Shown: in pieces, positions 13,983-63,242 of the stretch
How the letters are laid out: each line of letters starts with the position of its first letter
Numbering within the stretch: the first letter of the stretch is position 1
IMG/VR virus record: IMGVR_UViG_3300029258_004380
Coordinates: 3,558-67,557 of that record
DNA length: 64,000 bases
Strand: one strand, 5' to 3'
From: a virus
Position numbers and translations under genes: made by a program
Notes under the pieces: model-generated
What the model was told of the DNA's origin: nothing
What the model saw: only the letters and a program-made list of their open reading frames with translations
Databases searched by the model: none

Positions 13983-13995
13983 CAAAACGCCCAGA

Positions 13996-14031: not shown

Positions 14032-14059
14032 CTACGCAGAGAGTATGTAGGTACCACCT

Positions 14060-14302: not shown

Positions 14303-14358
14303 AAAGTGTCCTATCTGCCAAAGTGTCCCGTACAACTCTCTGGAGAATACACTGCCCA

Positions 14359-16851: not shown

Positions 16852-16879
16852 TTGACTTTAGGAGAACTTATGCTAGAAT
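16852..16879 (+). promoter_or_regulatory. possible sigma70 promoter
   Basis: TTGACT-N16-TAGAAT with extended TG; overlaps the candidate RBS/ATG. Confidence 0.4.
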
Positions 16880-36823: not shown

Positions 36824-38512
36824 TATCCGGGCGTTCTCCTTTTGGGCGGTAGTTCTCGTAGAATCTCCTCAACCAGCGTAATTCGCCGTCCGATCCATTG
36901 CAGCACAGGCACAGCAATGCTGTTACCCAACGCCTTGTATCGCGGACCGTCTGGGCACTTCTCGCGGGGTTTGTTTCGCCAGGGGATCAGGGTGTAACCG
37001 TCGGGAAAACCCATCAACCTCTCGCATTCGCACACCGACAAACGTCTTACCTCTGCGCCAGCGACAATACCCTCCTGGCGGCGACTACCCTTGTTGGCGT
37101 CGATGGTGGCGTGAACGTCCAACTCTCGCACGCCGCTCTGTGATTCCTTCTGGCCCCAGAGTCGCCCGTAGCTGGCGGACACCGGCGCGGACACCGGCGC
37201 GGTGTGCTGTACCAGAAAGGTCTCGGTCTCGAAGTCTATCCGGCCGCTGCCGCCCTTGGCACTCAGGGCACCGGCAGTGTCGATAGGCCCGGAGGTGTTG
37301 TTGTGACCGTAGGCCACTGCGGTAACTGGGTCTCCGTGGGTATACCCGCCGCGAATCTTGTGACAGGCGGAACAGGGAAAGTTTAGTGTGCCCACAAACG
37401 AATGGCCGCAGTCACACGTCATCTGCCAAAGTTCCAAGAACTGTGTCGCCTTAGGGTAGGCCACCAAATTGGTGTCGTCTTCGCACCGCCGTCCTGCGTA
37501 GCCACCCCTCCCGGCAGACTCTGCACCGCGAGTGAGTGTCGCGGCTGTAGCCGGACAAATCACTAGATTGTCGCTACCGTCGCCTCGTGGACTCGAATGG
37601 CCGTGGTGTCCAGCACTGGCAGCAACAGTGTTGGTGGTATTGTCGCACACCACCAGTGTCTGTGTGCAGTCGCTGTCGGGGCTACCCTTTGCATCGCGAC
37701 TGAGAACCGTTGTAGCCACTAAGTGCTCGCCGGGTTCGGTCCTGAATCCCCCTTCGTTGCCACCGCTGTTAAGGCACGCCGCAGCCGCTCGGGGATCTCC
37801 CAGCCCCGTTTCTCGGCTCGGCGGAGAATCCCCCGACAGGCTCTGGGGCTCAAAAAGTACCGCTGCGGCAGATCTCCAGTCTCCAAAATATCCGACAAGA
37901 AAGACACGACGGCGTCGCTGTGGAACTCCAAAGTGTTGAGCATCAAGAACCCGGTAGGCGAACCCATACCCGAGTTCTGCCAGTGCCCCGAGCAAGGTGC
38001 CAAAATCCCGTCCTTTCGGCTTGCCGGAGGACAACACACCGGGGACGTTCTCCCAGACCAACCATCGGGGGCGTGTGTAGCCAGCAAGCTGACAGAATCT
38101 GAGGGCCAAGTTACCACGCGGATCATCCAAGCCTTTTCTGAGTCCGGCGACTGAGAACGATTGGCAGGGGGTCCCCCCCAACAAGCAGGTCGATTCTTCC
38201 TCTGGCATCTAGCATATCTCCAGTGATCCTCGTTATGTCGCCCAGATTGGGCACTTGCGGATAATGGTACCCCAGAACCTCGCTGGGAAACCTCTCGATC
38301 TCCGAGTACCACGCCGCCCGCCACCCCAGCGGTCCCCAGGCCGCACTCGCCGCCGAGATCCCCGAGCAGGCGCTGCCGAAAACCAGACCGCGCATCCGCA
38401 TGATGTCCAGTTCTCGTTGGTGTTCCTCGCGCTGGTGCTGTACCGACAGCCGGGCGAGAATCTCAGCGTAGTGTCCCCTACGGTCGTCCTTTTTTCGTCG
38501 TCGTGCCATCAA
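36823..38512 (-). CDS. C5-cytosine DNA methyltransferase, frameshifted at G7 tract (38173-38179)
   Basis: Motif I (SACSGI), SEI and GDI in frame 38123..38512; GGTPCQSFS, ENVPG, QRRRRVF, ECERLMGFP and KALGNS in frame 36823..38208. Confidence 0.9.
37719..38130 (-). CDS. alternative-frame ORF inside the C5 MTase (M.EcoHK31I beta-like)
   Basis: LSDILETGDLPQRYFLSPRACRGILRRAEKRG; start uncertain. Confidence 0.6.
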
Positions 38513-43812: not shown

Positions 43813-44300
43813 ACAAAGAGTCCCTCCGGTTGCAATCTCGTCGGCACAGTCTCCAGATCCGGTAGCAAGAAAATGCCGGAGAACCAGAGAATGACGTGGA
43901 CTGAAAGACCACAAACCTGTCGCTCGCAGCCTTTAGCCAGGAATATGCTGGTGTTAAAAGAGTGAGGCCCGGCGCGGAGTGGTTCGTCTTTGAGGTGGGC
44001 AAAGTTCTCCGGGCCCAGTACCGCGTGTTTTGCCTCGCCCGAGTAGATCAGTTCGATGTTCTGCTGGCTTTGAAGGAGCACCTCGCGGACGGAGTCGTGA
44101 GAGATCGTCGCCCGGCGGTAGAACTCCTCCACCGGGTAGTGCTCCACGGAGAGCGCCCGCCACAAGCAGCGGAGAGACATCGCCCACAGCCACCTCAGCA
44201 GGTCCATCCAGCCGCTATCCAGACAGTCCTTGACGTACTCCCACTCCTTGCCAAAAATCTCCGGGACGCAGAGGGGGATACTTTCCTGTGAGACCATCAA
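43809..44300 (-). CDS. LegC/DegT aminotransferase N-terminal stub fused to a hypothetical protein
   Basis: IPLCVPEIFGKEWEYVKDCLDSGW followed by unrelated sequence. Confidence 0.7.
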   Translation of the reverse strand: MMVSQESIPLCVPEIFGKEWEYVKDCLDSGWMDLLRWLWAMSLRCLWRALSVEHYPVEEFYRRATISHDSVREVLLQSQQNIELIYSGEAKHAVLGPENFAHLKDEPLRAGPHSFNTSIFLAKGCERQVCGLSVHVILWFSGIFLLPDLETVPTRLQPEGLFV

Positions 44301-45232
44301 ACAACCCCCTTGTCGGTTAGTTCGTGCAGTTCGCGGATGCCCCCAGCAACGGTGTGAACAGTGGTGTAGCCGAGCTTCTCGTTGATCTTACGGAAAGAGA
44401 CCCGGTAGTCGCGGGGGTCCTCGTCGCGGTGGATAAAGTCGACGCGGACGCCGGGGGTCAGCGGGCGGATCATCTCGACGATCCCCCGCTTGCGGAAATT
44501 CTCCTCGGTGGCCCCCACGCCAAATACCTGACGCAAGACCGTCACCGGAGGCGATTGCAATACCTTGACGATTGCCCGGCCCACATCCACCACATGCACG
44601 TAGGGCCGCCAGAACTGCTGACCAAAGACATCCAGCTTGCCGGTGCAAACCATCTCACGGACGAACTGATTGACCGTCAGGTCCCATCGCATCCTCGGCG
44701 AGGTGCCGTAAACGGTAGCCAGCCTAAGACTGGTGCAGCAGATGTTGTCGGAGCGGGTGTGTAGGAGGATCTTTTCAGACAGCACCTTGGTCTTGGCGTA
44801 CAGCGACACCGGGTGCAGCGGCGAATTCTCGTCAACATAGCCATCGGAGTTCTCCATCTTGCCGTAATTGCTGCAAGTGGAGGCAAAGACAAACCTTGAG
44901 ATGCCGCGCGCCTTGGCTGCCGTCAACAACGCCGAAACGGCGTTGAGGTTCGTGGCCACGGCCAGTTCTGGCCGGCTGGCGCATGCCGGATCGCCCACGA
45001 TCGCCGCCAGGTGCACCACTGCCTCGCAGCCGGAGACGGCCTCGTCCACGCACTCTCGGTTGCAGATGTCTCCGTGGACAAACTGGAAATCCCTGTGGGG
45101 CCAAACGCCCAGCAGCCCCTGCCCGCCGAAGGTGAGGTTATCCAGCACCCTCACAGCATGCCCAGCCGCAAGCAACTGCGGCACCAGCGCAGAGCCGATA
45201 TACCCAGCCCCTCCGGTCACCAAAACTCTCAT
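44297..45232 (-). CDS. NAD-dependent nucleotide-sugar epimerase/dehydratase
   Basis: TGGAGYIG, HLAAIVGDPAC, ASTCSNYG, YAKTK. Confidence 0.92.
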   Translation of the reverse strand: MRVLVTGGAGYIGSALVPQLLAAGHAVRVLDNLTFGGQGLLGVWPHRDFQFVHGDICNRECVDEAVSGCEAVVHLAAIVGDPACASRPELAVATNLNAVSALLTAAKARGISRFVFASTCSNYGKMENSDGYVDENSPLHPVSLYAKTKVLSEKILLHTRSDNICCTSLRLATVYGTSPRMRWDLTVNQFVREMVCTGKLDVFGQQFWRPYVHVVDVGRAIVKVLQSPPVTVLRQVFGVGATEENFRKRGIVEMIRPLTPGVRVDFIHRDEDPRDYRVSFRKINEKLGYTTVHTVAGGIRELHELTDKGVV

Positions 45233-45234
45233 AA

Positions 45235-46302
45235 CTACTCGCCTTTCTCCGCGTCTCGTTGCGCGTTCCGGTAGTCCTCCACAGTCCCTACATCCATCCA
45301 GTATTCGATAATTGGAAAGCTGCAGATCGTCATTCCGCTACCCAGCAGCCGCAAAATCAGGTCCGGCATATCAATCTGCTCACCCGCCGCGATGTGCTCG
45401 TAGACCACCGGCTCCAGCAGGTAGATCCCGGCGCTCACCGAGAGCGTCAGCGAGGGTTTTTCCGATATCCCCGTCACCAGCCCGTTCTCGATCTCCACCA
45501 CACCATAGGGCACCCGAAAATCAAACTGACGAACGCCCAGAGTGAGATCCGCCTGCTGCTCGCGGTGGTAAGCAAACAGGGCCTCGAAGCTCAGATTGGT
45601 ATGGATGTCGCCGTTTACCACCAGCGTGGTACAAGCGGGCGGCGGGTTGAGCGTACCCAAAGAGCCGGCGGTACCCAGCGGCAAACCCTCGGTGGTGTAT
45701 TGAATCTCCAGACCAAAGTCTCGGCCGTCGCCAAAATGTTCGGTGATCTGCTCGGCCAGGTATCCGGTGCTAATCGTCATCCGCCGCACACCGGCGTTCT
45801 GCAACTTGCGGACCAGATGCTCAATCAGCGGGCGGTCGCCCACCGGAAGCATTGGTTTTGGCGTGTCCTCGGTTAGTGGACGCAGCCTAGAGCCCCGCCC
45901 CCCGGCCATCACCACTGCGTGCACTGGAGGAGGTTCGTCCGGCAGCAGTTCGTCCAGACGGACAACCCCCACGACCACCCCAGCATCATTCACTAACGGC
46001 AGGTGCTTTAGTTGGGCAGCGTGCATGATCCGCGAGAGCATGGCCTTCGGAGCGTCGGCAGGGGCGGTCACCGTAGGTGCGGGAATCTTGCCCGCCCGGC
46101 GCAACAGCAACGCACCGACTGGGCTGTCCAGCCCCATACCCTCCAGCACAGCCCGGCGGATGTCCCCGTCGGTCGCCGTCCCCACCAGAGCTCCGCCTGC
46201 GACCACCAGGGCGATCCCTTTGGCTCCCCGGTCGATCACCTCCAGCACCTCGTAGAGGGTCTGCTCGGGGGCAACAAAGAATTCATCGCAGGCAGCGTTC
46301 AT
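45235..46302 (-). CDS. CBS plus sugar-phosphate nucleotidyltransferase (LegX/PtmE-like)
   Basis: TDGDIRR (CBS); MAGGRGSRLRPLTEDTPKPML, PLGTAG, NGD, YWMDVG. Confidence 0.9.
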   Translation of the reverse strand: MNAACDEFFVAPEQTLYEVLEVIDRGAKGIALVVAGGALVGTATDGDIRRAVLEGMGLDSPVGALLLRRAGKIPAPTVTAPADAPKAMLSRIMHAAQLKHLPLVNDAGVVVGVVRLDELLPDEPPPVHAVVMAGGRGSRLRPLTEDTPKPMLPVGDRPLIEHLVRKLQNAGVRRMTISTGYLAEQITEHFGDGRDFGLEIQYTTEGLPLGTAGSLGTLNPPPACTTLVVNGDIHTNLSFEALFAYHREQQADLTLGVRQFDFRVPYGVVEIENGLVTGISEKPSLTLSVSAGIYLLEPVVYEHIAAGEQIDMPDLILRLLGSGMTICSFPIIEYWMDVGTVEDYRNAQRDAEKGE

Positions 46303-46306
46303 GCAG

Positions 46307-46975
46307 CTAGCTCCTGTGAAAGTCTCGGGCGGGAAACTGGCGACCCTTGGCACCCACCGCCACCGTGTTGTCAGGAACATCGCGGTAGACGGCCATCCCC
46401 GCGCCGATAATCGCGCCGCTGCCGATCGAGACCCCCGGCCGTACGCTAACCCCGGCGCCGATCGCCGCGCAGGCGCCCACCACCACACCGCCCGCCATGC
46501 TCACACCGGTGGCCACAGTAGCAAAATCACCCAGCACGCAGTCGTGCTCAACGATCGCCCCAGTATTGACAACCACGCCCTGGCCGAGCTTGGCCCGCGA
46601 GTGGACCACTGAGTAGGGCATACACTGGCAGCCAAGCCCGCAGTCGGCCGAGGACGACACCACCGCCGTAGGGTGTCTTACGGTGACCGGGTGGAGCTGT
46701 TGGCCACAGGCCAGCTCAAAGAGTTCTCTCCGCAGCAGAGAATTGCCCGCCGCAGCGATAAAGCTGTCCACCCCCTCGGCCACGAGTCCCGGCAAGAGTT
46801 TGTCGGTGCCTCGGATGGGCACGCCCAGCAACCGATCACCGACACGGTCAGCGTCATCACAGAGGATCGCCCGCAGCAGATCGCTGCCAGGGGCCTGGGC
46901 CCGCAAACATTCGATCAACACGGCGGCGTGGCCGCCTGCGCCGAACATCACGCAGTATTTCTTACCACAGAACAT
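46307..46975 (-). CDS. NeuD/PglD/LegH-family acetyltransferase
   Basis: GAGGHA, HP.A, NTGAIVEHDC, hexapeptide repeats. Confidence 0.9.
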   Translation of the reverse strand: MFCGKKYCVMFGAGGHAAVLIECLRAQAPGSDLLRAILCDDADRVGDRLLGVPIRGTDKLLPGLVAEGVDSFIAAAGNSLLRRELFELACGQQLHPVTVRHPTAVVSSSADCGLGCQCMPYSVVHSRAKLGQGVVVNTGAIVEHDCVLGDFATVATGVSMAGGVVVGACAAIGAGVSVRPGVSIGSGAIIGAGMAVYRDVPDNTVAVGAKGRQFPARDFHRS

Positions 46976-46980
46976 CTTGG

Positions 46981-48099
46981 TTATCCGTCTTGGAACTTCT
47001 TGACGATCAGTTGCTGATCTAGAGACACCTCGGCCAGCCGGGCGCAGATGATCTTTGCCGCCCCACCCTTGTCATAGGGGTTTTTAAGGGCCTTCAGCGA
47101 GTCGCGAAACTCCTCGCCGGTGGCCCGGCAAATCGCGTCGCGGATGGCGACCGAATCAGCCGGCACGCTGATCACGTTCCTGGCCCGTTGACGGCCCGCC
47201 TGCCGATTGCCGACGTTGATCACCGGCAGGCCAAACGAGGCTGCCTCTACGATCCCGCTGGAGGAGTTGCCCACCATCGCCGCAGCGTTACTCATCACGC
47301 TGAAATAGACCTGCCAACCAAGGGTTTCGTAAAGTTCCGCGTTGGGGTGGCTATCGACGTACTCGCGAACCCGCCGGGACACCATGCCACCAAAGGTGTC
47401 TGTGTTCGTGCCTGTGAACAACACCGGCCGCTGGGTCATCTCCAAGGCCGCCAGCAGGTGCTCGACTTGGTATGACACGCTTTCGTATTCCAGCGTTGTG
47501 GGGTGAAAGGTGACCAAGAGGGTCTCTTCGGTCACGAAAACCCCCAGTTCGGCCAGTTCACGGCAGGTGTAAAATGACATCCCCCGACCATTGTCCAGCG
47601 AGGGCGCCCCCGAAACGGTAATCCGCCAATCCTCCTCTCCCATCTGGGCAATTCTCTGAGCACTCTGCCGAGTGGCCACAAAGTGTAGGTGGGCGAGTTT
47701 GGTGATCGAGTGCCGAAGGCTGTCGTCGATGGCCCCCCACGAGATCTCCCCGCCGTGAATGTGGGCAGTGGGGATCTTTTGTGGCAGTGCGGCCACTGCC
47801 GCCGAGTGCATCTCGTAGCGGTCGCCGCAGACCAGCAGAATGCTGGGACGGGTCCTCGCCAGGGCGTCGGCAAACCCCAGCGTGTGCAAGCCCATCGAGC
47901 GGGCGATCGCCGTAGGGCAGTCGTGCCCAGGCAACATGTCCACGACCTCATCGGCCACAAAGCCGTCAGCAAGTTGGTGGTGCCCAGCGGTAAATATCCG
48001 CAACTGCAGCGATGGGTTGCCCCGAATCGCCAGCATCACCGGCCGCAAAATCCCGTAGTCGGCCCGGTTGGTAGTAACAACGCCGATAGTTCTAGTCAT
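46981..48099 (-). CDS. hydrolysing UDP/GDP-sugar 2-epimerase (LegG/NeuC-like)
   Basis: RADYG, GDRYE, HIHGGE, RHSITKLAH.HF, GNSSSGI.EA. Confidence 0.9.
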   Translation of the reverse strand: MTRTIGVVTTNRADYGILRPVMLAIRGNPSLQLRIFTAGHHQLADGFVADEVVDMLPGHDCPTAIARSMGLHTLGFADALARTRPSILLVCGDRYEMHSAAVAALPQKIPTAHIHGGEISWGAIDDSLRHSITKLAHLHFVATRQSAQRIAQMGEEDWRITVSGAPSLDNGRGMSFYTCRELAELGVFVTEETLLVTFHPTTLEYESVSYQVEHLLAALEMTQRPVLFTGTNTDTFGGMVSRRVREYVDSHPNAELYETLGWQVYFSVMSNAAAMVGNSSSGIVEAASFGLPVINVGNRQAGRQRARNVISVPADSVAIRDAICRATGEEFRDSLKALKNPYDKGGAAKIICARLAEVSLDQQLIVKKFQDG

Positions 48100-48824
48100 G
48101 TAGTCTTCTCCAGTTTGAGAACCTCCAACTGGTCGCCAAAGATCACCGGCAATCGCGAGGCCATCTGCCGCAGCAGAGAGCACATGATCTGGCGGATCTG
48201 CCACTGGGCCCGTTTGTTCAGAGCCCGTTCGCGAAACACGTGCCGCCACTGACGGAGGTTGAACGTGCTAACCACCTCGGTCTTGGTGGCGTTGGGCAGA
48301 ACGCTGCGGGCGTCCTCGGGCGGGATGCCGTCTTCCCGAAGATCCAAATACTCTTTGTACTCTCGCCGTCTGTTATCCAGCCACTTGCATAAACGGTTGC
48401 TGTCGAGGTCCGTACCACACCCCTCGTGATCCCAGACCGACATACACCCGAGACCCGCACGATGCTCCCAAGTTCCGGGTGCTAGATATCCAATACTCGG
48501 CGGGCAAACAACCTGCAGGCCCTTCTTGCCGTAGTCGCAGTACCGCTGCGACTCCTGCGAGTACGCCGCGATCCGGTGACGGACCAGCTGGTGGGACATC
48601 GAGCGGTCGCCGATGATCCGTGCTGTATAGACCGCGTGCTCGATCACCGACTCGTGGCCGCGATTGATAATCCCGCGAATAAATTTCCCGGCCGAGTCGT
48701 CTGTGGCCTTGTCCTCGCTCTTGTAGCAGGTCCTGCCAGCGTCCTCCAACAGTCGCATGATCTCGGCATCCCAAGACACTGGGGTGATAATTTCCGCCGA
48801 GGGTTTAACAATGGTGATTTTCAT
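48096..48824 (-). CDS. thyX: FAD-dependent thymidylate synthase
   Basis: GHESVIEH, HQLVRHRIAAYSQESQRY, EDARSVLPN, AQWQIR. Confidence 0.95.
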   Translation of the reverse strand: MKITIVKPSAEIITPVSWDAEIMRLLEDAGRTCYKSEDKATDDSAGKFIRGIINRGHESVIEHAVYTARIIGDRSMSHQLVRHRIAAYSQESQRYCDYGKKGLQVVCPPSIGYLAPGTWEHRAGLGCMSVWDHEGCGTDLDSNRLCKWLDNRRREYKEYLDLREDGIPPEDARSVLPNATKTEVVSTFNLRQWRHVFRERALNKRAQWQIRQIMCSLLRQMASRLPVIFGDQLEVLKLEKTT

Positions 48825-53828: not shown

Positions 53829-54405
53829 GGAAACCTCCCTCGACTCTCAGTTCGGCGGCCTTGCGGATCAGCCGGATCACGTCCATCGCATCCTCCACAG
53901 CCGTGTGCGAGACCTGTTTGTCGTACCCAGCCCGTTTTAGACAGGTCGCCATGTCGGGTAGCTGCCGATCCTCTCCGCAGCGCCACCAGAGCAGCCCCGG
54001 GTCGATCACGCGGTGGTGAAACTGCACGTCGTCGTCGAAATTCGGCAGGCGGCGCAAAAACTGCAGGTCAAAGCCCGCAAAGTTCTTACCCGCCGCAGTA
54101 ATCTTGTCGTGATACTGGTGGTGCCAGAGAAACTTGGCAAACAACTTCCCCAACTCGCCGGGTTCAACACAGAGCGCGCCCTCCGCGCCCTTCCCCGTAG
54201 CCAGAACACGAAAGATCCTTGTGTGCATTGACAAGGCGTACGCCTGCCCCTGAAACAGCCCGTGGTGGATATAGGCGTGAAACACGGGCAGGTTATCCAG
54301 CGGGGCCTGGTTGTCAAGGTCGTCAATCACGGCTGCGAACTCGATCACATCGCAGGTGGCGGGGTCAAGGCCGGTGGTCTCCAGATCAATCGATACGTAC
54401 CTCAT
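53815..54405 (-). CDS. DEDDh 3'-5' exonuclease
   Basis: IDLETTGL, GKN.A.FD..FL, ID, HTAVEDA. Confidence 0.88.
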   Translation of the reverse strand: MRYVSIDLETTGLDPATCDVIEFAAVIDDLDNQAPLDNLPVFHAYIHHGLFQGQAYALSMHTRIFRVLATGKGAEGALCVEPGELGKLFAKFLWHHQYHDKITAAGKNFAGFDLQFLRRLPNFDDDVQFHHRVIDPGLLWWRCGEDRQLPDMATCLKRAGYDKQVSHTAVEDAMDVIRLIRKAAELRVEGGFHVRG

Positions 54406-55244
54406 GCACAAAAATCCTTTCTCGGCAGCACCAGGTGCGCAGGCACCACATCGCCGTGTTCAAGGTTGCAATCAATAAGGTCCGCGCCGCAGTTGCGCAG
54501 GTTGGAAAACCCGGCCCACTGCCCGCAAGTCACATCCAGATAGCCCGGCCAAGCGATCCGTCCGTGGTCAATGTCGTAAAAGTACCCCGGCCGAGTAAGA
54601 TACTGGCAACCAGCCAGCCGGACCTCGGCCCCTGGGTTGAGGATGCAGGCCAAGTGCGCGGCGGCGGTGAGCACCGAGGCGTGGTGATACAGCGAGTAGG
54701 GCGGCTGCCTCCAGGACATCCCCCGCAAGACCACCGGCAGGCTGCAGTGGGTGGTAAACCAACTAACCGGTAGCCCACTCTGCTCGACAATCCGGCGGAT
54801 CTCCGGCAGGGCGGCAGTCTCGGAGACAAACAGCCTCAGCAACCGAGACCGCAACAAGGTGTCGCTGCGGATCACATCCAGCTGTCGCCGCAGCAGCGCG
54901 CACATCTGGGGCGTGTGTGTATCCAGCAGCATCCAGCAAGTGGGCCGAAAACCCAGCAGCCGCCAGTGCTCAGGAAAGTGGTTGACACAAAACACCCAGG
55001 GGGCGCGGTCTAGATGTTTCCGCTCGGCCAGGGTGAGGTATTTCAGCTGCCAGGAGTTGCCCAGCACGTAGGACGGCCCCAGCGGATAATTCCACTCGGG
55101 GTTCTCGGGGTGCTTGTAGCGGCAAGTGCGGTACTCGCTGGCCGCAAGTAGGTCGTTCTTGGGTAGCGGCTGCCGCGCAGACAGTCTCTCACGGACGATC
55201 TTTTGGGTCACCTCGGGGGCGCCACCCATCGTGGGTGCAGGCAT
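54402..55244 (-). CDS. Maf/DUF115-like putative nonulosonate transferase, paralogue 1
   Basis: YVLGNS, VFCVN, PT.W..LD, SVL.AA.HLA, EV.L.GC.Y, YFYD. Confidence 0.6.
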   Translation of the reverse strand: MPAPTMGGAPEVTQKIVRERLSARQPLPKNDLLAASEYRTCRYKHPENPEWNYPLGPSYVLGNSWQLKYLTLAERKHLDRAPWVFCVNHFPEHWRLLGFRPTCWMLLDTHTPQMCALLRRQLDVIRSDTLLRSRLLRLFVSETAALPEIRRIVEQSGLPVSWFTTHCSLPVVLRGMSWRQPPYSLYHHASVLTAAAHLACILNPGAEVRLAGCQYLTRPGYFYDIDHGRIAWPGYLDVTCGQWAGFSNLRNCGADLIDCNLEHGDVVPAHLVLPRKDFCA

Positions 55245-55245: not shown

Positions 55246-56163
55246 TCAGTCTCTCCTCGTGGACAGACGCGGGAGTCTTTCCAGCCAATCCGCAACAAGT
55301 TCGAGCCAAGGACCCTCGTCCTCTCTCTCACCAACAAAGCCGACGGGATAGCGGCAGACGCCCACATCGATCTCGTACCGCTGCCTGATCGCCTCAGCCA
55401 CAAAGCGGTACCCGCCACGAAACAGCGCGATCCTGACCATTTTCTGAAATTCAATCATGAACCGGGCCGCCAGACTCGCGTCACCGCCGAGAAACGCCCT
55501 TCGCACCTGCGAGCACTCCGGCCCAAAGACACCGAAGAAGGTGCCGATAGCTCCCACCGCTCCGGAGAGCGCGGCGTGGCAGAAGACCTCGTCGTGGCCG
55601 CTGAACAGCCGCAGCCGGTCTCCTGCATAGCCGTGAATCAGACCAAACTGGTTGAGGTCCCCGGTGGTGATTTTCATGCCCGCAATCGTGGGAATCTCCA
55701 ACAGTTCACCGACGTAGTCGCAAACATCAAGCAAAGACTTCTTAACTAAGTCGATCTGGTAGATGTACAACGGCAACGAACACGCCTCAGAGATCTGGCG
55801 GTAGTGCCCAAAAACGGCACGCATGGGCAGGTCGTAGTAGACCGGCCCCACCGCAGAGATCGCGTCGGCCCCGATCCGCTCGGCATGTAGCGCCAGCCTA
55901 ACAGCCTCAGAGGTGGTCATCGCACCCACGTGGACAAACACCGGCAGCCGGCCGGCTGCGGCGTCGACGACCGTAGCTGCAAACTCCTGCCGCTCCTCGG
56001 TGGAGAGCAAAAGACCCTGGCCGGTGCTGCCGAGGATATACAGCCCACCCAGTTGCTGGTCGCAGTACACGTCCACCAGCTTTCGGGCGGCCGTATGGTT
56101 GAGCCTGCCCGAATCTGTCATCGGCGTAACCATTGCGGGCCAGACCCCGGCGTCATAAATCAT
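55246..56163 (-). CDS. nanA: N-acetylneuraminate lyase (DapA family)
   Basis: GLYILGSTG, IYQI, GMKIT, FSGHDE, GAIGTF. Confidence 0.8.
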   Translation of the reverse strand: MIYDAGVWPAMVTPMTDSGRLNHTAARKLVDVYCDQQLGGLYILGSTGQGLLLSTEERQEFAATVVDAAAGRLPVFVHVGAMTTSEAVRLALHAERIGADAISAVGPVYYDLPMRAVFGHYRQISEACSLPLYIYQIDLVKKSLLDVCDYVGELLEIPTIAGMKITTGDLNQFGLIHGYAGDRLRLFSGHDEVFCHAALSGAVGAIGTFFGVFGPECSQVRRAFLGGDASLAARFMIEFQKMVRIALFRGGYRFVAEAIRQRYEIDVGVCRYPVGFVGEREDEGPWLELVADWLERLPRLSTRRD

Positions 56164-57287
56164 CTACGAACCTCCTGAAACTGTTTTTGTGGTATCGCCT
56201 GCCAGGAGCACCGCCGCAAGATCGCCACGAATTTCTCTGCGCTGCCCCCCTCGCCAAACGGGTAGTTTGGCTTGACCGCTTTGGGTAGGGCAGCCATTGC
56301 CATCAAGATTTCGTTTTCGTTCTCGTCCACATGGACCACCGCCGGGCTGTCACCCCGGTTGCGCTGCCGAGTGCCGAGATTGATCGCGGGCACCCCGTAA
56401 ACGGGCGCCTCGCGAATCCCGCTGCTGGAGTTGCCCAGCACAAACTGGGCGTGCTTGAGCAACGAAAGGTAATACTCAAACCGCATCGAGGGATAGATGC
56501 GAAACCGCCCCCAACAGTCGGGCATCAGCATCTCGGAGATCGCCCGGCGGATCACCTCCGCGCCGGGATCGTTGTTAGGCTGAATCACCACATAACTGTG
56601 GGTCGACTCCACCATCGCCATCAGAACCTCGCCGATTTTGTCAGGCAGGTCCGCCAGTTCGTCGGAGACGGAGTGGTAGCAGAAGATGGCATACTGGTCG
56701 AACGGGATCGAATACCGCTGCTTAACCTTCTCGATCTCAGGCAGCGAGCCGAGCATCACGTCCACCTCCGGGGAGCCGATCTGGTGGATCGACCGGGGGT
56801 CCTCACCCATCTGCTCGACGCGGTTCTGGGCCTCCCGGTTGGCCACAAAGTGCATGTGTGAGAGTTTGGTCACTGCGTGGCGGACGACCTCGTCGATGGT
56901 GCCGGAGAGTTCTCCGCCCTCAATGTGTGCCACCGGCACGCCGCAGGCGTTGCCCACAATCGCCCCGGCCAGGGCCTCCATGCGATCGCCGTGAATCACG
57001 ATCAGCTGCGGGCGGACCTCGCAGACGTATTTCGACAGCCCCGAGACGGTCTCGGCCAACACCAGTTCGGGCCGGTTCTGCTCGGCCGTCTGGTTAAAGC
57101 ACAAGAAGAGGTTGCTGAAATCGCACTTGCGGATCTCCAAATAGGTCTCGCCGTGCGCAGCCAGCAGGTGCATCCCAGTAGCAAAGACATACTCCACCAG
57201 CGTGGGGTCGTCGTGGACGGCGCGGATCAGCGGCTTGAGCTTGCCGAAATCGGCGCGGGTACCGGTGATAAACAGGATCTTGCGCAT
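56160..57287 (-). CDS. neuC: UDP-GlcNAc 2-epimerase (hydrolysing), SiaA type
   Basis: ILFITGTRADFGKLKPL, HGDR.EALAGA, HIEGGELSGTID, IGSP, PNND.G. Confidence 0.93.
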   Translation of the reverse strand: MRKILFITGTRADFGKLKPLIRAVHDDPTLVEYVFATGMHLLAAHGETYLEIRKCDFSNLFLCFNQTAEQNRPELVLAETVSGLSKYVCEVRPQLIVIHGDRMEALAGAIVGNACGVPVAHIEGGELSGTIDEVVRHAVTKLSHMHFVANREAQNRVEQMGEDPRSIHQIGSPEVDVMLGSLPEIEKVKQRYSIPFDQYAIFCYHSVSDELADLPDKIGEVLMAMVESTHSYVVIQPNNDPGAEVIRRAISEMLMPDCWGRFRIYPSMRFEYYLSLLKHAQFVLGNSSSGIREAPVYGVPAINLGTRQRNRGDSPAVVHVDENENEILMAMAALPKAVKPNYPFGEGGSAEKFVAILRRCSWQAIPQKQFQEVRR

Positions 57288-58327
57288 CAGGCGATCATGT
57301 CCCAGGTGAGTTGCATGTCGGCGGGGATGACGCAGGCGGCTGTTCGCCCGTAGACCTGATCCAGATCGTCGGCCTGCAGCGGCCCAGTCCCCGGCCGCTT
57401 TACCCAGACGTTATGGCGGTCGAGGAGTTCTCCCTCGGCAATCTCCCGAGTGCTCACCACCGAGGCAAAGGCAAACTCGGCAACGGACTCCTCCTCCGGC
57501 AGTACGTTCTTGCCCGAACCAATGGCGGTGTACGCCTGCTGTACTCCATCAACCAGATCCCGCATCTGCTGGGGGTTGGCCGAAACGGGGATGTCGGGGC
57601 CAGAGAGCCACGACGAGCAGGTAAAATGCTTCTCGATGATGCTCGCTCCCATCCCCACAGCGGCAAAGGCGGCGTAGTTGTTGGTAGTGTGATCGCTGAG
57701 GCCCACCACGGCGTCGGGGAATCTCTTGCGCAGAAACTCCATTCCCCGCAGGTGGACCTTGTCGACCGGCGTGGGATAGATCGAGGTACACTGCAGCAGC
57801 GCAAACGGCACCTTGGCCTCGCGGAGGATCTCCACCGAGCGGGCCACCGACGGCAGGTTGTTCATCCCCGTAGAGAGGATCACCGGCTTGCCGAAACCGG
57901 CGATGTGCCTGACCAGCGGCCGGTTGTTACACTCGCCGCTGCCGATCTTGAACGCCTCTACGCTCATCCGGGCAAGCCGCAACGCCGCCTCGGCAGAGAA
58001 GGGCGTGCTCAGGTAGATCATCCCCTCCCGCTCGACCAGCTGCTTGAAATGAAAATCCTCAGCTTGGCTAAGCGAGCAGCGGTCAATCAGAGAATAGACA
58101 TCCTCGCCCGTTCCAGTTATGACTTTCTTGGCGTGCGGGGACATCTCCTTATCGGCGATGTGGCACTGAAATTTTACACACTCGCAGCCGCAGCCCTTGG
58201 CGGCGCGGACCATGTCAGTGGCGAGATCCAGATGGCCTCGGTGGTTGATGCCAATCTCGGCGATTACCAAAGGCGAGTAGCCAGAGCCGACGTAACGGCG
58301 TCCGAGTCGCAAGAAATTGGCTGTCAT
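57287..58327 (-). CDS. neuB: N-acetylneuraminate synthase, SiaC type
   Basis: IAEIGINH, STPFS, KIGSGECNN, GLSDHT, EKHFT, FAFASVV...WVKRPG. Confidence 0.95.
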   Translation of the reverse strand: MTANFLRLGRRYVGSGYSPLVIAEIGINHRGHLDLATDMVRAAKGCGCECVKFQCHIADKEMSPHAKKVITGTGEDVYSLIDRCSLSQAEDFHFKQLVEREGMIYLSTPFSAEAALRLARMSVEAFKIGSGECNNRPLVRHIAGFGKPVILSTGMNNLPSVARSVEILREAKVPFALLQCTSIYPTPVDKVHLRGMEFLRKRFPDAVVGLSDHTTNNYAAFAAVGMGASIIEKHFTCSSWLSGPDIPVSANPQQMRDLVDGVQQAYTAIGSGKNVLPEEESVAEFAFASVVSTREIAEGELLDRHNVWVKRPGTGPLQADDLDQVYGRTAACVIPADMQLTWDMIA

Positions 58328-58339: not shown

Positions 58340-59188
58340 TCAATTGGGTTTGCTGCCGAGAATGTCGCGCCACGCAGGAGAGGTCCGCGAGATCCAGTTG
58401 AGAAGTTTCTGGCAAGCCTCTGCGTCCAGCCCCTCCAGGCTGCGAAAGGCCGCTGCTGCTGCCGAGATCAACCAGTCCTGCTTGGGTGGGCAGTATTTGA
58501 CGATTCCCTTGATCTGCCCGGTGTACATCTTGCGGTACCAGTCCGCATCGCGAGCGGAGGACGGAAAGACTTGGTGCTCGTGGTGCGTCTTCAGCACCCT
58601 GGCGTATCGCCCGCCGTGGTTTTCGACCAGAGCCCGAAAGACCAAGTCCTCGTTGCGGTAGAGGTACCCATCATCCTCGATCTTGTGTAGAAACGGGGCA
58701 AAGGCGCTGCGGCGGGCCAGCTGGCTGCCGCTGTAGGGCCTTGCAGCAGCGTTCTGCGCGGCGGCTACGGTCTTGGCCCCCGTCCGCAGATCGTGCCACA
58801 CCCGACCACACTCCATAAACTCCGCCAGCGACGAGTGGGCCCACATCACGTCGTACCAGCCGCCAACCACCCGCACGTCGGCGTGCAGATAGACGAACCA
58901 CTCCGAACTGACACACTCGATCAGTTCGGCGATGCAGTAACCCAGCGACCTGTAACACCGCTGGTCAAGAACCGTCATCCTCGGGTAGGGACGAGAAAGC
59001 AGCCAGTAGCTATCGTTGATTTCGCAGTTGCCGATCAGCAGACGACGGATGGGGATCTCGGCGTAGTGGAATTTCAGGTTGTTGTGAAACTCCAGCGGCG
59101 GCTGCCCTTTCATGGGGATGATCACGTCCACCCCCACGTCGGAGGTCAGGTAGCGGTCCTTCTCCAGCGGCGAGTTGAGTCTGTTCAT
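58340..59188 (-). CDS. GT-A (GT2-like) glycosyltransferase
   Basis: VDVIIP, EWFVYLHADV, RNEDL. Confidence 0.65.
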   Translation of the reverse strand: MNRLNSPLEKDRYLTSDVGVDVIIPMKGQPPLEFHNNLKFHYAEIPIRRLLIGNCEINDSYWLLSRPYPRMTVLDQRCYRSLGYCIAELIECVSSEWFVYLHADVRVVGGWYDVMWAHSSLAEFMECGRVWHDLRTGAKTVAAAQNAAARPYSGSQLARRSAFAPFLHKIEDDGYLYRNEDLVFRALVENHGGRYARVLKTHHEHQVFPSSARDADWYRKMYTGQIKGIVKYCPPKQDWLISAAAAAFRSLEGLDAEACQKLLNWISRTSPAWRDILGSKPN

Positions 59189-60438
59189 AGAAAAGTCACC
59201 TTTCCCTCGGCCACCAGTTCCGAAAAAATCTCGTGCTCGCGGTGGTAATTCTGCCCAGTGGCAAAAGGCTTGTTGGGAGCGTAGTAGTGGCAAGGACCAC
59301 GATCATCGGGTTTGCCAAAACCGACCAGCGAGATCACTTGGTTAGGAAAGCGGTCCATCGCCTTGTAGGTGGCAATCAGACCAGTGGAGGGCCCCTTGAC
59401 CTTGGCATGCAAACGCCGCTCCACCCTGGCGGGCGTAAGTTCGATCTTCCGCTGCGCAGATGGGTCGATGGGACGAAACCACTGTAAAAACTGAAAGAAC
59501 TCCTCACGGTTCTTGACCGTGCTAAACGGTATCCAGATCGCCTCCAAGGTGGGAAGAAAGTCGGCGAGATCCACCCCGTACTGTTGGCAAAAATTTCGCA
59601 GCTTGAAATTGGCGCCGTTCCAGGTGGAAAGCGCCCAGCAGTCGGTCCTCCGCCCCACGTCTACCTCAAACCCCTGCGTGATGAACGAGTTGCAGCGAAC
59701 GACCAGATCGTGGGCGTCGATCTGCTCGCCCAACCCCCGCCCGAGCAGTTCCGCCGAATTGCCGACGATGATGATTGACCCCTGCGATCTCCCAGAGGCG
59801 GGAGCGCCCCGCAACAAGTACCCGTTAGTGATCAGCCACTCTCGATACGTCTGCTCGATAGCCCCCACAATTTCCTCGGAGAGGGTTTTTTGGTAAGTGC
59901 CCGTGCCCCCATCGGTGAAATGGTTGGGGTGGAGCATGGTCACCGGGTCGATCACGTCGCCAGGGCGGAGTTCCTCAACCTGCCGATTCACCCGCTCAGC
60001 GTCGCACTCCACGCCCAGAACCTTGGCGATCTCGACGATAGCGAGAGGCTTGTCGCGGATCATCTCCTCGTAGGAGACCAGGAGGTCGGCGCGAGGTGAC
60101 CAACCGCGAGACTCGTGGCGGATAAGCGTGCGTAAGAACTCGATCACCGCCGACATGTCGTGGGCAACCAGCCCCATGCGGACGGCGGAGGCAGCAACGT
60201 CCCGCAGGTCCCGGCGGGTGGTGAGGACGTAGTCACCAAGTTCCTCCCACTGCGGATCGTAGCGGTGGATCTTGAGGATGTGCACAGGAGCCGGATTGGC
60301 GGGGTTGTAGTCCCCAGTAGCGAAAGAACAGTAAATGTCGCGGTTGTCGTTGAGATAGATGAAACGGACCACGTTGTAGAGCCACGTACTCCCAGCACGG
60401 TGCATTCCGGCGCAAAGTATCCTCAGTGGTCGCTCCAT
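59185..60438 (-). CDS. sulfotransferase-GT29 sialyltransferase-like fusion
   Basis: GMHRAGSTW and RDLRDVAAS; sialylmotif L IVGNS...IDAHDLVVRCN...DVGRRT, S motif PSTG...LVGF, HYY. Confidence 0.85.
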   Translation of the reverse strand: MERPLRILCAGMHRAGSTWLYNVVRFIYLNDNRDIYCSFATGDYNPANPAPVHILKIHRYDPQWEELGDYVLTTRRDLRDVAASAVRMGLVAHDMSAVIEFLRTLIRHESRGWSPRADLLVSYEEMIRDKPLAIVEIAKVLGVECDAERVNRQVEELRPGDVIDPVTMLHPNHFTDGGTGTYQKTLSEEIVGAIEQTYREWLITNGYLLRGAPASGRSQGSIIIVGNSAELLGRGLGEQIDAHDLVVRCNSFITQGFEVDVGRRTDCWALSTWNGANFKLRNFCQQYGVDLADFLPTLEAIWIPFSTVKNREEFFQFLQWFRPIDPSAQRKIELTPARVERRLHAKVKGPSTGLIATYKAMDRFPNQVISLVGFGKPDDRGPCHYYAPNKPFATGQNYHREHEIFSELVAEGKVTFL

Positions 60439-61089
60439 CTACGCTTCTCCCAAAATAGTGATCTGTCCCTCGTGGTGTAATCTCTGCAAAACCGCCCACT
60501 CGGCGCTGTAGTCGTGCACCGTGCGATATTCCTGAGGCTCTTGGCAGGGCCGCTCAAAATAGTGGGCATGCTCGGCTGGCGCGTCAAAGACAAGATAGTC
60601 GTACTTGCCGCCGCCGGGTTGTCTCCGGGGGATTTCCCGAATCGGCCCAAACCCAGTCACCGACACCCGCCCCGCACCATAGCGGGCAATCGCCAGTAGC
60701 ACAGCGAAAAATCCGTGCGAGGAGTGACCTACCAACTCCTCGGCCTGCGCGACTATCTGAGGGTCCGGAGGACGGAGTGGTGGCAGTGGTCCTACCATCT
60801 CGGCAAAGGCATCTCGCAATTCCGCCGACGGCGGCTTGGGGCGAAACCAGATCTCCGAGAGCGACTGCACGAAACCGAAACCTCCGCTGGCCGAGAAGAC
60901 GGCCCGCAGGCGTGGGAGCACATCCATCCGCAGGGAGACGCACCAGATGTCAGTGCGCTGGCCGACGTGCTTGACAAACCCCCGCGTGACAAAACTGTTG
61001 CATCGAATCACCAGAGCGTGGGCGTCGATGGTATGTCCCAGCTGCTTGTCCAACAGAGATCTCGCGTTTCCCACCACCACCACACTCAT
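60439..61089 (-). CDS. GT29 sialyltransferase
   Basis: VVGNA...IDAH.LVIRCN...HVGQRT; SSHG...VTGF; HYF; HDYSAE. Confidence 0.85.
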   Translation of the reverse strand: MSVVVVGNARSLLDKQLGHTIDAHALVIRCNSFVTRGFVKHVGQRTDIWCVSLRMDVLPRLRAVFSASGGFGFVQSLSEIWFRPKPPSAELRDAFAEMVGPLPPLRPPDPQIVAQAEELVGHSSHGFFAVLLAIARYGAGRVSVTGFGPIREIPRRQPGGGKYDYLVFDAPAEHAHYFERPCQEPQEYRTVHDYSAEWAVLQRLHHEGQITILGEA

Positions 61090-61769
61090 GCCAGCCCCAA
61101 GCACCTCGCCAGCCGCTCGCCCCGCTGCCAGTCCTCCTCGGTGTCGATGTCGATCCACCGCAACGGGTCGGTCTCCACCACGCCCACGCGACCCCCAATC
61201 ACGTACGACATCACAGGCAGCCGCAACCGGTCGAGCACGTAGACCGCCGAGTCCTGCACCCACTGCGGCGCCCAGTCCTTTGACCAGGGCAGACCACCAT
61301 TAGCGCCCTTAATTAGGGGATGGTTGACCACCTCCCCGTCTCTGTCGCGGAGCACAAACCTCGCGGGCCAGCCGGAGTAGACCGAGTCAAACTTTCCTAG
61401 AGCGTGCAGTTCGACCGCGCGGTAGATGGTACGGTAATCCATCAGCGGGCTGGTCGGCTGCAAATAAATAATATGATGCTGCGACCCCCGCTGCTGGAAA
61501 AAGAACCGCGCCACCTCGGCCAACGGCGTATTGCCCTTAGCCAACTCGGGAGGCTCCTTGAGTACGGCCGCGCCCATGGTGCGGGCCTCCTTGGAGATCG
61601 CCCCTGAGTCGGTAACCACCGTCGGGGAAAAGCCCGCCACTAAGGCATTACGGATCGACCAGTGGATCAGCGGTCGTCCGGCGAATTTTCTTAGGTTCTT
61701 GCCCTCGACCCTCGTGGACCCGCCTCGGGCAGGAATCATCAGTCGGTAGTCGTCTTTATTGATTGTCAC
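61086..61769 (-). CDS. neuA: CMP-N-acylneuraminate synthetase
   Basis: IPARGGSTRV.GKN, LQPTSPL, IDIDTEED. Confidence 0.93.
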   Translation of the reverse strand: MTINKDDYRLMIPARGGSTRVEGKNLRKFAGRPLIHWSIRNALVAGFSPTVVTDSGAISKEARTMGAAVLKEPPELAKGNTPLAEVARFFFQQRGSQHHIIYLQPTSPLMDYRTIYRAVELHALGKFDSVYSGWPARFVLRDRDGEVVNHPLIKGANGGLPWSKDWAPQWVQDSAVYVLDRLRLPVMSYVIGGRVGVVETDPLRWIDIDTEEDWQRGERLARCLGLA

Positions 61770-62454
61770 TGTTCGGTTTCTGCACGTAGTAAACAGCCGA
61801 CTGCTGGCCGTACTCGGTCAGCAGCAGTTCGAGGCCGCAGTCGTTGAGGATCTCGGCGAATTGCTCATCACCGTAGCTGGTCATACTCATCGCGTTGCGC
61901 TCGTAGTCCTTCGTTTTGGGCCGAAACCTCTGGGGGTCGCCCTCCTCGTAGATGCGAACCTGGAAGATCGCCGTCCCGCCAGGGACCAGCAGATCGTGGG
62001 CCAGCCGCACCACCCGCAGCCCGTACGCCTGGCTGGGCACGTGCTGCAGCACGGAGACGGTCAGAAAGAAATCCACCGCCGGGATTGACGCCAGGACTAG
62101 CTCTGGCCGTGAGACCTCAGTCAACACGGGTTCAAACCCGACGAAACCACACTGCTGCGCCCGTCGATCAGCCTCCTTGAGGTTCTCCAGCGATACATCC
62201 ACGCCGTAGATCGCCTCAAACCGCCCAGCAAAGGCAACCACGTTGGCGCCGCCACCGCAGCCGTACTCGCACATGCGCACCTGCCGCATGTCGCCGGCGA
62301 GATCTCGCAGGCAGTCGTAGCGGCGGAGGTTCTTTTGCCCCAAGGCATACCAGTGGGCGGGGTCCTTCCAGCGACCGTAGCCCCGCCAGTGGCTCCAGGC
62401 CCGCCGCCGGGCGTCGTCGCGGTTCCAGAACTGTTGGGCCTCGTCGTGTAACAT
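61756..62454 (-). CDS. class I SAM-dependent methyltransferase
   Basis: GAGGAG-ATG at 62454; EYGCGGG, GVDVS, VLQH.P, L.PGG. Confidence 0.88.
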   Translation of the reverse strand: MLHDEAQQFWNRDDARRRAWSHWRGYGRWKDPAHWYALGQKNLRRYDCLRDLAGDMRQVRMCEYGCGGGANVVAFAGRFEAIYGVDVSLENLKEADRRAQQCGFVGFEPVLTEVSRPELVLASIPAVDFFLTVSVLQHVPSQAYGLRVVRLAHDLLVPGGTAIFQVRIYEEGDPQRFRPKTKDYERNAMSMTSYGDEQFAEILNDCGLELLLTEYGQQSAVYYVQKPNSDNQ

Positions 62455-62473
62455 GCCGCTCTCCTCACCAGTT

Positions 62474-62505
62474 ATTATACGATGTATTCCGAAATCCATT
62501 GTGAA
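62474..62505 (-). promoter_or_regulatory. promoter for the sialic-acid operon with operator-like motif
   Basis: CAATggATTTCggAATACAT-cg-TATAAT in an AT-rich patch 20 nt before the ATG. Confidence 0.65.
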
Positions 62506-62549
62506 AAACTTTCCAGGGGCTACAGATGGTAAACTGGGTAAGCTGGGGG

Positions 62550-63242
62550 TCACCCAGCCAGCAGGTCGCGGCGGGGTAGGTGGTAGGGTGGCAGGTCGTC
62601 ATGGTAAAGGTTGCTATCGACTAGGTTTACGCCCCCGGCCCGCAGCAAGGCAAAGCCCTCCCACATCCGCCTCCGAAAGTCTTCGTCCCCCAGCCAGGGT
62701 GTTGGCGCAGCATCGGGCGGATCGTAGAAATGCAACACCGCGCCCGGCGGACCGTACTCGCAGGCAAACACACGAATCTCCGCCCGGGAGCAGAGGGTGT
62801 AGGCGAGGTTGGCCGCACCAGTCAAGGAACTACCTGCCTGAAGCATGGGCAGATCCAAGCTGTCCGAGATCGGCCGGTGTCGTTCGGCATAGTAGCCCCG
62901 CAGAAATCTGGTTACTGGAAACCCCGCGTCGGTCAGCAAACGTTTGATCCGCTCGTCGCTGTCGCGGCAGTTGACGTAGCGGGTGGCCATCCGGCGTCGC
63001 AGCCGGGCGTCAGTCCGCAGCAGGTGGAACACCTGCCGAGCGCTGTCAACGGCAGAGTCGCCCCAACAATCCATCTGCGCCCAGTGTGTGGGACAAAAGC
63101 CAGCCTGCCGGTAGTGCAGCGGAAAGCGATTTACACAGAACACGTACTCGGCAGAGTCGAGATGCCGACGCTGAGCAGAACTGAGATAAGAGACCTGCGG
63201 AGAGCAGCCAGCCACGTAGATGATCGGGCGATCAGTAGTCAC
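62550..63242 (-). CDS. Maf/DUF115-like putative nonulosonate transferase, paralogue 2
   Basis: YVAGCS, VFCVN, PT.W..MD, SSL..A.NLA, EI.V..C.Y, HFYD. Confidence 0.6.
   Translation of the reverse strand: MTTDRPIIYVAGCSPQVSYLSSAQRRHLDSAEYVFCVNRFPLHYRQAGFCPTHWAQMDCWGDSAVDSARQVFHLLRTDARLRRRMATRYVNCRDSDERIKRLLTDAGFPVTRFLRGYYAERHRPISDSLDLPMLQAGSSLTGAANLAYTLCSRAEIRVFACEYGPPGAVLHFYDPPDAAPTPWLGDEDFRRRMWEGFALLRAGGVNLVDSNLYHDDLPPYHLPRRDLLAG

Follow-up and report, generated by a model that had tools for sequence, protein, structure and literature searches.

We analyzed a 64,000-nucleotide stretch of viral DNA (the window; positions 3,558 to 67,557 of the IMG/VR virus record IMGVR_UViG_3300029258_004380) and found that a gene on its minus strand (59185..60438) encodes a sulfotransferase joined through a linker to a GT29 sialyltransferase-like domain, in which a glutamine (Gln396) occupies the position of the catalytic histidine. 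This protein of 417 amino acids is a new combination of a known sulfotransferase family and the known GT29 fold, in which the catalytic His has been lost, a rare natural event, and is encoded in a phage sialic-acid operon next to a second GT29 protein, GT29-A, in which the motif is canonical. The interpretation that we prefer, to which we would give slightly less than an even chance, is that the Gln-containing domain is a non-catalytic module that binds cytidine monophosphate (CMP)-sialic acid or a sialoside, that it aims the sulfotransferase, and that it works with the active GT29-A.

The fusion is produced from one open frame with an ATG start, in which both domains are recognized by Pfam. 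All features of this gene and of the operon around it lie on the minus strand. The sulfotransferase domain (residues 1–207, 59818..60438) was delimited by Pfam, by an alignment of a 64-sequence family and by comparison of the family profile with the motifs of retinol dehydratase and oestrogen sulfotransferase. Next comes a linker of approximately 10 residues (residues 208–218, 59785..59817), which was modelled with low confidence (predicted local distance difference test, pLDDT, below 50 for residues 1–11 of the domain model), and then the GT29 sialyltransferase-like domain (residues 219–417, 59188..59784), which was identified by Pfam, by a profile match in the Protein Data Bank (PDB) to 2WNB (E 1.6e-34), by AlphaFold2 modelling and by Foldseek. 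With the whole protein as query, PF00777 (Glyco_transf_29) matched residues 221–412 (E 6.5e-19, 68.8 bits against a cut-off of 23, profile positions 56–271 of 272) and PF00685 (Sulfotransfer_1) matched residues 117–202 (E 2.3e-6, 27.6 bits against a cut-off of 22), and no family match to the fusion was obtained in NCBIfam or in PHROGs.

To place Gln396, we used an alignment of 98 GT29-like domains, consisting of 29 viral rows (including the two of the window), 3 database proteins and 66 open reading frames (ORFs) from 62 bacterial and archaeal genome loci. Two reviews name the His of the sialylmotif VS as the base used in catalysis by GT29 enzymes (PMC10225777, PMC8433944). The column of this residue was filled in 87 of the 98 domains, the other 11 being gapped or truncated there, and contained His in 83, Gln in 2 and Met in 2 (hmmalign), while the Glu located five residues further on was present in all 87. 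A profile of 57 GT29-like domains aligned end to end with the solved structures of ST3Gal1 (2WNB, E 1.6e-34) and ST6Gal1, and the column falls on the His of VHDGDFE in the former and of YHPLLYE in the latter. The replacement of this His by Gln (GQNYHREH in the fusion, VHDYSAEW in GT29-A), which had been noted in a preliminary description of the window, was reproduced by both MAFFT and hmmalign and was also found in the profile alignment (Gln396, codon CAG, 59251..59253). The conserved Glu of the motif is present (Glu401, 59236..59238). The H-x4-E motif with its catalytic His is thus not found in the fusion and, because Gln396 occupies the His column, its domain is on sequence grounds filed as GT29-like rather than as a canonical GT29 sialyltransferase. 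According to the secondary structure of the model, Gln396 lies two residues ahead of the last helix, and this helix carries two histidines, His399 (i+3) and His402 (i+6).

Apart from this residue, the GT29 domain appears intact. The structure of the entire fusion predicted by AlphaFold2 from the single sequence was not usable (pLDDT 35.3), and when the fusion was aligned by MAFFT together with the two groups of relatives at once, the GT29 rows were placed on the sulfotransferase domain and this alignment was discarded; modelling was for this reason limited to the GT29 domain. The model of residues 208–417, built from a 57-row alignment, reached a pLDDT of 90.1 and a predicted template modelling score of 0.87. 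A comparison with ST3Gal and ST6Gal enzymes had been proposed in the preliminary description. The best PDB matches of the model in Foldseek were GT29 structures, namely ST8SiaIII (E 4.8e-10), ST6GalNAc2, ST3Gal1 and ST6Gal1, followed by the GT42 enzyme CstII; E values of the top GT29 matches ranged from 4.8e-10 to 1.5e-5 and TM scores (query) from 0.57 to 0.71. This is the variant of the GT-A fold known from ST3Gal1, ST6Gal1 and ST8SiaIII. The L, S and HYY motifs that had been recognized earlier are present, the latter being sialylmotif III (His384-Tyr385-Tyr386, 59281..59289, assigned by column conservation), and the consensus residues of the three sialylmotifs are kept (V225-G-N227, D241, R248, N250, G262, P350, G353, G373-F374 and H384-Y385). 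Among the 57 GT29-like domains, 23 columns are conserved at 75% or more, and the fusion has the consensus residue in 21 of them. The two exceptions are C249, which is mostly Phe in the family and Cys in the closest relatives, and Gln396. The CMP-sugar-binding motifs L, S and III have therefore been retained and only the base has been lost.

The relatives of this domain point to a recurrent pairing of His-bearing and His-less GT29 copies. The nearest relative of the GT29 domain of the fusion is the C-terminal domain of P0011 (48% identity), which has the same Gln (GQRYGIE, codon CAG). P0011 is a tandem GT29(His)-GT29(Gln) protein of 422 amino acids that is also encoded on a metagenome contig of 1962 bases (L031). 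At the positions equivalent to His399 and His402, P0011/L031 has Gly and Ala, respectively, and the next relative, P0019, has His in the VS column. Because Gln is kept in P0011/L031 without the neighbouring histidines while P0019 has the His, we consider Gln to be the selected state of a small clade. In a tree obtained by a quick maximum-likelihood search only, the His-bearing N-terminal domain of P0011 paired with GT29-A of the window (Shimodaira–Hasegawa-like approximate likelihood-ratio test, SH-aLRT, 99), and the Gln pair grouped with the His-bearing P0019 (SH-aLRT 91); a scan of viral sequences with P0019 as query gave no matches. The resemblance between P0011/L031 and the window extends to gene order. 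In both, the Gln-type domains are nearest relatives, the His-type domain is nearest to GT29-A, and a homologue of the GT2-like gene located downstream in the window follows. However, P0011/L031 lacks the sulfotransferase and has instead a gene for an FkbM-type methyltransferase (762–1481, plus strand), and its two GT29 domains form one polypeptide, whereas in the window they are parted by a TAG stop and the sulfotransferase domain. From this comparison it follows that a His-type GT29 and a Gln-type GT29 form a conserved unit. In the viral contig L013 (L014 is identical there), two GT29 genes of one clade are adjacent: a gene with Met in the column (9704–10540) overlaps by 4 nucleotides a gene with His (10537–11625). 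Judged from the alignment, the base has here been lost a second time, independently, from one member of a phage GT29 pair. L011 has a near-identical Met-type gene, which is so near the end of its stretch that the neighbour cannot be judged. In all 3 assessable cases the His-less copy is beside or fused to a His-bearing copy, which is as would be expected of a non-catalytic partner.

Turning to the N-terminal half of the fusion, the motifs of sulfotransferases are the 5'-phosphosulfate-binding loop (5'-PSB), the 3'-phosphate-binding motif (3'-PB) and a catalytic His after a Lys. The same names are used in the part of PMC9304399 that deals with these motifs. In the fusion they correspond to R14-A-G-S-T-W19 (5'-PSB loop), K56-x-H58 (with the catalytic His), R76...S84 (3'-PB), and H173/G177. 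The family alignment showed that H58, R76, S84 and H173 are invariant among the 64 sequences, and that G11, G16-S-T-W19 and K56 are nearly so. In addition, the VKxH and RDxRDxxxS segments of the family profile, together with the PSB loop, align to solved cytosolic sulfotransferases (VKTH and RDPRDVAVS). When the sulfotransferase domain was analyzed alone, PF00685, which shares a clan with PF13469, scored 31.5 bits (cut-off 22), and 46 of the 64 family members matched this profile. The N-terminal sulfotransferase binding 3'-phosphoadenosine 5'-phosphosulfate (PAPS) that had been proposed for this protein is thus borne out by a Pfam match above the cut-off and a full set of motifs. With all catalytic and PAPS-binding motifs present, the domain looks like an active PAPS sulfotransferase.

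To find further members of this family, we performed an exhaustive HMMER search of 1.84 billion representatives, which gave 2378 matches at E ≤0.001, and examined the best 150 of these 2378. One was the fusion itself, 2 matched its GT29 part (P0011 and P0019), and 147 matched only the sulfotransferase part, most of them standalone proteins of approximately 200 to 230 amino acids; the 63 relatives that were aligned are 32% to 44% identical to residues 1–208 of the fusion. Together these proteins form a small family of phage and bacterial PAPS-type sulfotransferases (P0012–P0156; viral loci L094–L113) that has the invariant residues in common with the fusion and occurs in phage glycan-modification islands. 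Unlike the fusion, which is the only one with a GT29 domain, its members are standalone or have other partners, namely an FkbM methyltransferase (P0009) or unclassified C-terminal domains (P0085, P0104, P0110). The islands in which the standalone proteins are found are varied, with GT2, GT9 and GT47 glycosyltransferases and FkbM methyltransferases. FkbM-type methyltransferases recur in these settings: one gene is adjacent to the sulfotransferase in 3 of the 8 viral loci examined for this (L095, L102 and L105), one is the fused partner in P0009, and one is the gene beside the Gln-type GT29 in L031, and sulfation and methylation modules appear exchangeable. Genes resembling neuA or neuB were located within 10 kb of the sulfotransferase in only 2 of the 23 viral loci of the family. 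One of these, on a 264 kb phage contig (L103), contains two sulfotransferases of the family, an MptE-like protein, a CMP-sugar synthetase and NeuB. Its glycan island (5991–17137) also encodes a GT2-like protein, GT11 and GT10 fucosyltransferase-like proteins, a HAD-nucleotidyltransferase, a GDSL esterase-like protein, a radical SAM/SPASM protein and a methyltransferase. Intein genes (Intein_splicing plus LAGLIDADG) are located beside the sulfotransferases in L094 (13024–15213) and L105 (10581–12746), and the genes that bear them encode a subtilase and a sugar epimerase/dehydratase.

A second protein combining a sulfotransferase with GT29 was found in none of the collections searched, and the architecture is thus not common. 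In a word-index search of 5.8 billion clusters, PF00777 and PF00685 occurred together only on the fusion itself, and the same search with the GT29 domain alone gave no matches. No other fusion was present among the best 150 of the 2378 HMMER matches, a set that a distant fusion scoring below approximately 88 bits would escape, nor in the 27 viral loci with GT29, the 62 bacterial and archaeal genome loci with GT29 or the 23 viral loci of the sulfotransferase family. Among the 62 genome loci, the sole case of proximity is a weak, unfused sulfotransferase-like ORF 2.5 kb from a GT29 gene (L083). The 59 long GT29 proteins had no sulfotransferase partner either, and their partners were GT4, Wzx-like, DcpS-like and endonuclease-phosphatase domains. 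In the literature, with limited coverage of subscription journals, we found no text pairing 'GT29' with 'sulfotransferase domain', and no work on phage GT29 or on phage sialic-acid clusters was among the matches listed. The GT29 domain by itself is widespread, being present in Actinomycetota, Pseudomonadota, Verrucomicrobiota, Bacillota and others among the 62 genome loci, as well as in the 27 viral loci. The name 'glycosyltransferase family 29 protein' is already in use at NCBI, and BFVD holds phage entries so named. Since bacterial GT29 proteins were also reported in 2018 (PMC5811610), the earlier label 'eukaryote-like' for this domain is misleading.

Altogether, the fusion would be an enzyme of two domains that modifies glycans and belongs to an operon of the phage for glycosylation with sialic (nonulosonic) acid. 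In the interpretation that we prefer, its N-terminal domain would act as a PAPS-dependent sulfotransferase, and its C-terminal domain would derive from a duplication of the phage's own sialyltransferase, with general-base catalysis lost by the change from His to Gln. The Gln domain would retain the ability to bind CMP-sialic acid, the sialylated product or both, and as a recognition module would bring the sulfotransferase to sialic acid. GT29-A, which is encoded directly upstream, would perform the transfer in cooperation with the fusion, and a surface structure of the phage or its host would in the end bear a sulfated sialoglycan. We favour a binding module because the base has been lost selectively, because Gln has been kept while the nearby histidines have not, and because the pairing with a His-bearing copy is constant. 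A specificity supplied by the fused GT29 module also fits the lack of a built-in link to sialic acid in the sulfotransferase family (2 of 23 loci). The preliminary description had left the choice between a coupled sialyl-plus-sulfate enzyme and a GT29 fold reused as a binding module; the data lean modestly toward reuse as a binding or partner module.

Several points weigh against a binding module. The full retention of the donor-binding motifs is equally expected of an active transferase; His399 or His402 might reach the acceptor in the window protein; the link to sialic-acid genes in only 2 of 23 loci allows that the sulfate is placed on another sugar of the glycan; and the phage fragment encodes no adenosine 5'-phosphosulfate kinase, so that the host, or the two thirds of the genome that are unseen, must supply the PAPS. 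A prediction of the complex between GT29-A and the Gln-type domain, scored at 0.00 without controls, carries no weight for either side. The first two points are also the basis for a bifunctional enzyme, an alternative that we consider possible and rather unlikely. Here the Gln-type domain would still transfer a nonulosonic acid, either with another base (His399, His402, Glu401 or the phosphate of the donor) or onto an acceptor for which deprotonation is unnecessary, and the sulfotransferase would then sulfate the product or the acceptor. The fold is intact and has retained every donor-binding column, and two histidines lie within six residues of Gln396. The literature provides precedents that both strengthen this alternative and weaken a binding module, as plant GT29-like proteins without motifs III and VS have been proposed to be working transferases (PMC5811610), and it describes POFUT1 as an inverting transferase without an obvious base (PMC8433944). 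The other transferase-like genes of the cluster are also numerous enough to suggest that the glycan is made in several steps. However, 83 of 87 relatives have His in the column, and this residue is accepted as the catalytic base in the two reviews cited for it above (PMC10225777, PMC8433944), His399 and His402 are replaced by Gly and Ala in the sister Gln-type domain, and the His-less copies always accompany a His-bearing copy, as would a regulatory or partner subunit and not an independent enzyme.

It is less probable still that the Gln domain is a structural partner, serving as a dimerization unit or scaffold for GT29-A, with the sulfotransferase as a passenger that acts on a non-sialic sugar and the fusion merely holding the enzymes together. 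This is consistent with P0011/L031, where A-type and Gln-type domains are joined in a Rosetta-stone fusion, with the lack of sialic-acid genes in 21 of 23 loci of the sulfotransferase family, and with the GT2, GT9 and GT47 genes found as neighbours of this family. Yet every donor-binding column has been kept although the Gln-type sequences are only 48% identical to each other, which would be unexpected if the domain were purely structural. To readings other than those listed here we assign a small probability. Finally, that a mis-assembly, a frameshift or a sequencing error created the fusion or the Gln is highly improbable: the source is a metagenomic contig and a single base separates the codons of His (CAY) and Gln (CAR), but the 2.2 kb around the gene (59100–61300) were recovered with 0 differences and 0 gaps in contigs from 4 public runs of 3 studies, the identical protein was recorded on 4 contigs in the word-index search, the Gln is also encoded (CAG) by the independent contig L031, whose domain is 48% identical, and the domain boundary lies inside a continuous ORF with its own Shine-Dalgarno-like sequence GGGAGAAG and ATG.

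Because the identical stretch and protein recur across contigs, the fusion and its Gln are not a slip in the assembly of a single contig. The labels of the 4 runs are sediment and seawater metagenome; the source sample may be among them, and two equally long contigs are perhaps one data set filed twice. No RNA run was among the sequencing runs listed as holding the stretch. The window covers nearly the whole virus record of 67,557 bases, an uncultured phage fragment with an estimated completeness of approximately 32% by CheckV, and the end of the contig cuts off a tail-collar fibre gene. Phage replication genes are present in the window (a PolA-type polymerase, SbcCD, a DnaB-like helicase, a primase and a clamp-like processivity factor). 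The closest comparison for the polymerase was with Bacillus SPO1-like phages, and an assignment of the host by this gene was given up since identity was only approximately 30%.

The operon that contains the fusion is tightly coupled, with starts and stops that abut or overlap, and we describe it in the direction of transcription. A class I S-adenosylmethionine-dependent methyltransferase (61756..62553, Pfam) is followed by a CMP-nonulosonate (NeuA-like) cytidylyltransferase (61086..61769; PF02348, E 7.8e-20, with weak PseF and KdsB matches below cut-offs) and by GT29-A (60439..61089), a protein of 216 amino acids with the canonical VS motif HDYSAE (PF00777, E 2.1e-19 on the ORF 60439–61263). 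GT29-A probably starts with the ATG at 61089, and this codon overlaps the stop of the preceding cytidylyltransferase gene. GT29-A is 33% identical to the GT29 domain of the fusion over 170 columns (E 9e-21). The ATG of the fusion follows the TAG stop of GT29-A (60441–60439) directly and in frame, and GGGAGAAG lies a short way upstream of this ATG. Read-through of the TAG (60436–60441), which would give a three-domain GT29-sulfotransferase-GT29 protein, was considered and rejected because long ORFs elsewhere are intact under translation table 11, the only tRNA is Trp-CCA, and the fusion has a Shine-Dalgarno-like site of its own. The TGA of the fusion overlaps the ATG (ATGA) of a gene for a GT2-like glycosyltransferase of 282 amino acids with a GT-A fold (58340..59188; Atlas structure, TM 0.70 to GT2 families). 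Further downstream are genes for a NeuB-type nonulosonate synthase with a SAF domain (57287..58327; TIGR03569, 341 bits, below the cut-off of 399.65), a NeuC-type hydrolysing uridine diphosphate N-acetylglucosamine 2-epimerase (56160..57287; TIGR03568, 361 bits against a cut-off of 235.9) and an N-acetylneuraminate lyase-like aldolase of the dihydrodipicolinate synthase family (55246..56163, below equivalog cut-offs). Within 10 kb of the 27 viral GT29 loci, NeuA-like genes were detected in 6, NeuB-like genes in 5 and NeuC-like genes in 2.

The operon is bracketed by two paralogous genes without a Pfam family (62550..63200 and 54402..55100; 37% identity over 226 columns, E 7e-36). In the Atlas, one of the proteins falls near viral clusters, one of which is MptE-like (PF01973) on 22% of its members. 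An MptE-like fold, suggested as a lead for 62550..63200, would make the pair further nonulosonate-transferase-like proteins. A second sugar-nucleotide island (44297–48249, minus strand) encodes a short-chain dehydrogenase/reductase-type epimerase/dehydratase, a CBS-domain nucleotidyltransferase, a NeuD-family acetyltransferase (TIGR03570, 169.9 bits, above the cut-off) and a second NeuC-type hydrolysing 2-epimerase (TIGR03568, 362 bits). Judging from these genes, a legionaminic-acid-like or acetylated nonulosonate may be among the products of the phage, in addition to N-acetylneuraminic acid (Neu5Ac). Elsewhere in the window are a ThyX gene (48096–48824) and two DNA methyltransferase-like genes (36823–38208, minus strand, and 13873–15222, plus strand; PHROG 116 and 67).

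Sialic acids that bear sulfate are known to occur in sea urchins and in vertebrates. We put forward, with clear reservation, that the phage may encode the first system for O-sulfation of sialic acid (nonulosonate) outside the deuterostomes, in which a duplicated GT29 domain deprived of its base was recycled as the recognition domain of a sulfotransferase. In this proposal, phages would repeatedly have removed the base from one GT29 copy (once by Gln and once by Met), yielding pseudo-enzymes that are paired with active copies and recruit modifiers, the sulfotransferase here and the product of the methyltransferase gene in L031. If so, the fusion would be a natural example of a GT29 pseudo-enzyme and, as a compact soluble phage protein, a candidate tool for producing sulfated sialosides. 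If the Gln domain is active instead, GT29 catalysis could dispense with a histidine that is held to be essential. The window also adds to the evidence that large environmental phages have complete nonulosonic-acid glycosylation pathways decorated with acetyl, methyl and sulfate groups.

Among known systems, the structurally characterized GT29 sialyltransferases (ST3Gal1, 2WNB; ST6Gal1, 4JS1 and 6QVS; ST8SiaIII, 5BO9; ST6GalNAc2, 6APL) have the fold, the sialylmotifs L, S and III and the VS Glu in common with the phage domain, which differs from them in the Gln at the VS His, in the fused sulfotransferase and in its size of approximately 200 amino acids, which is less than that of the catalytic domains of the animal enzymes. 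No membrane anchor is evident in the fusion, as in the bacterial GT29 proteins that have been published. The proposed division of labour resembles that of the streptococcal GtfA-GtfB pair, in which GtfB is a non-catalytic partner with a glycosyltransferase fold that provides substrate binding for the active partner. The likeness concerns a duplicated fold that aids an active partner without catalysis, GtfA-GtfB having a GT-B fold and belonging to another system. The closest functional analogy is provided by the vertebrate sialate O-sulfotransferases WSCD1 and WSCD2, in which a PAPS sulfotransferase is joined to a WSC domain, a domain associated with carbohydrates, and which modify sialoglycans but neither free Neu5Ac nor CMP-Neu5Ac; in the 2022 paper on these enzymes, they are the sole enzyme class named for the sulfation of sialic acid, and their orthologues are placed in deuterostomes only (PMC9304399). 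No WSC domain was matched in the fusion by Pfam at E values up to 0.01, and the nearest relatives of the phage sulfotransferase among the best 150 of the 2378 matches are small prokaryotic and viral sulfotransferases, not WSCD orthologues. WSCD1/2 are thus analogues rather than relatives, with homology seen only as the general sulfotransferase fold. They are membrane proteins of deuterostomes with a demonstrated activity on sialic acid, whereas that of the phage protein is deduced from its sequence and context; in both, a PAPS sulfotransferase is joined to a domain that is associated with carbohydrates, in the phage presumably through its GT29 fold.

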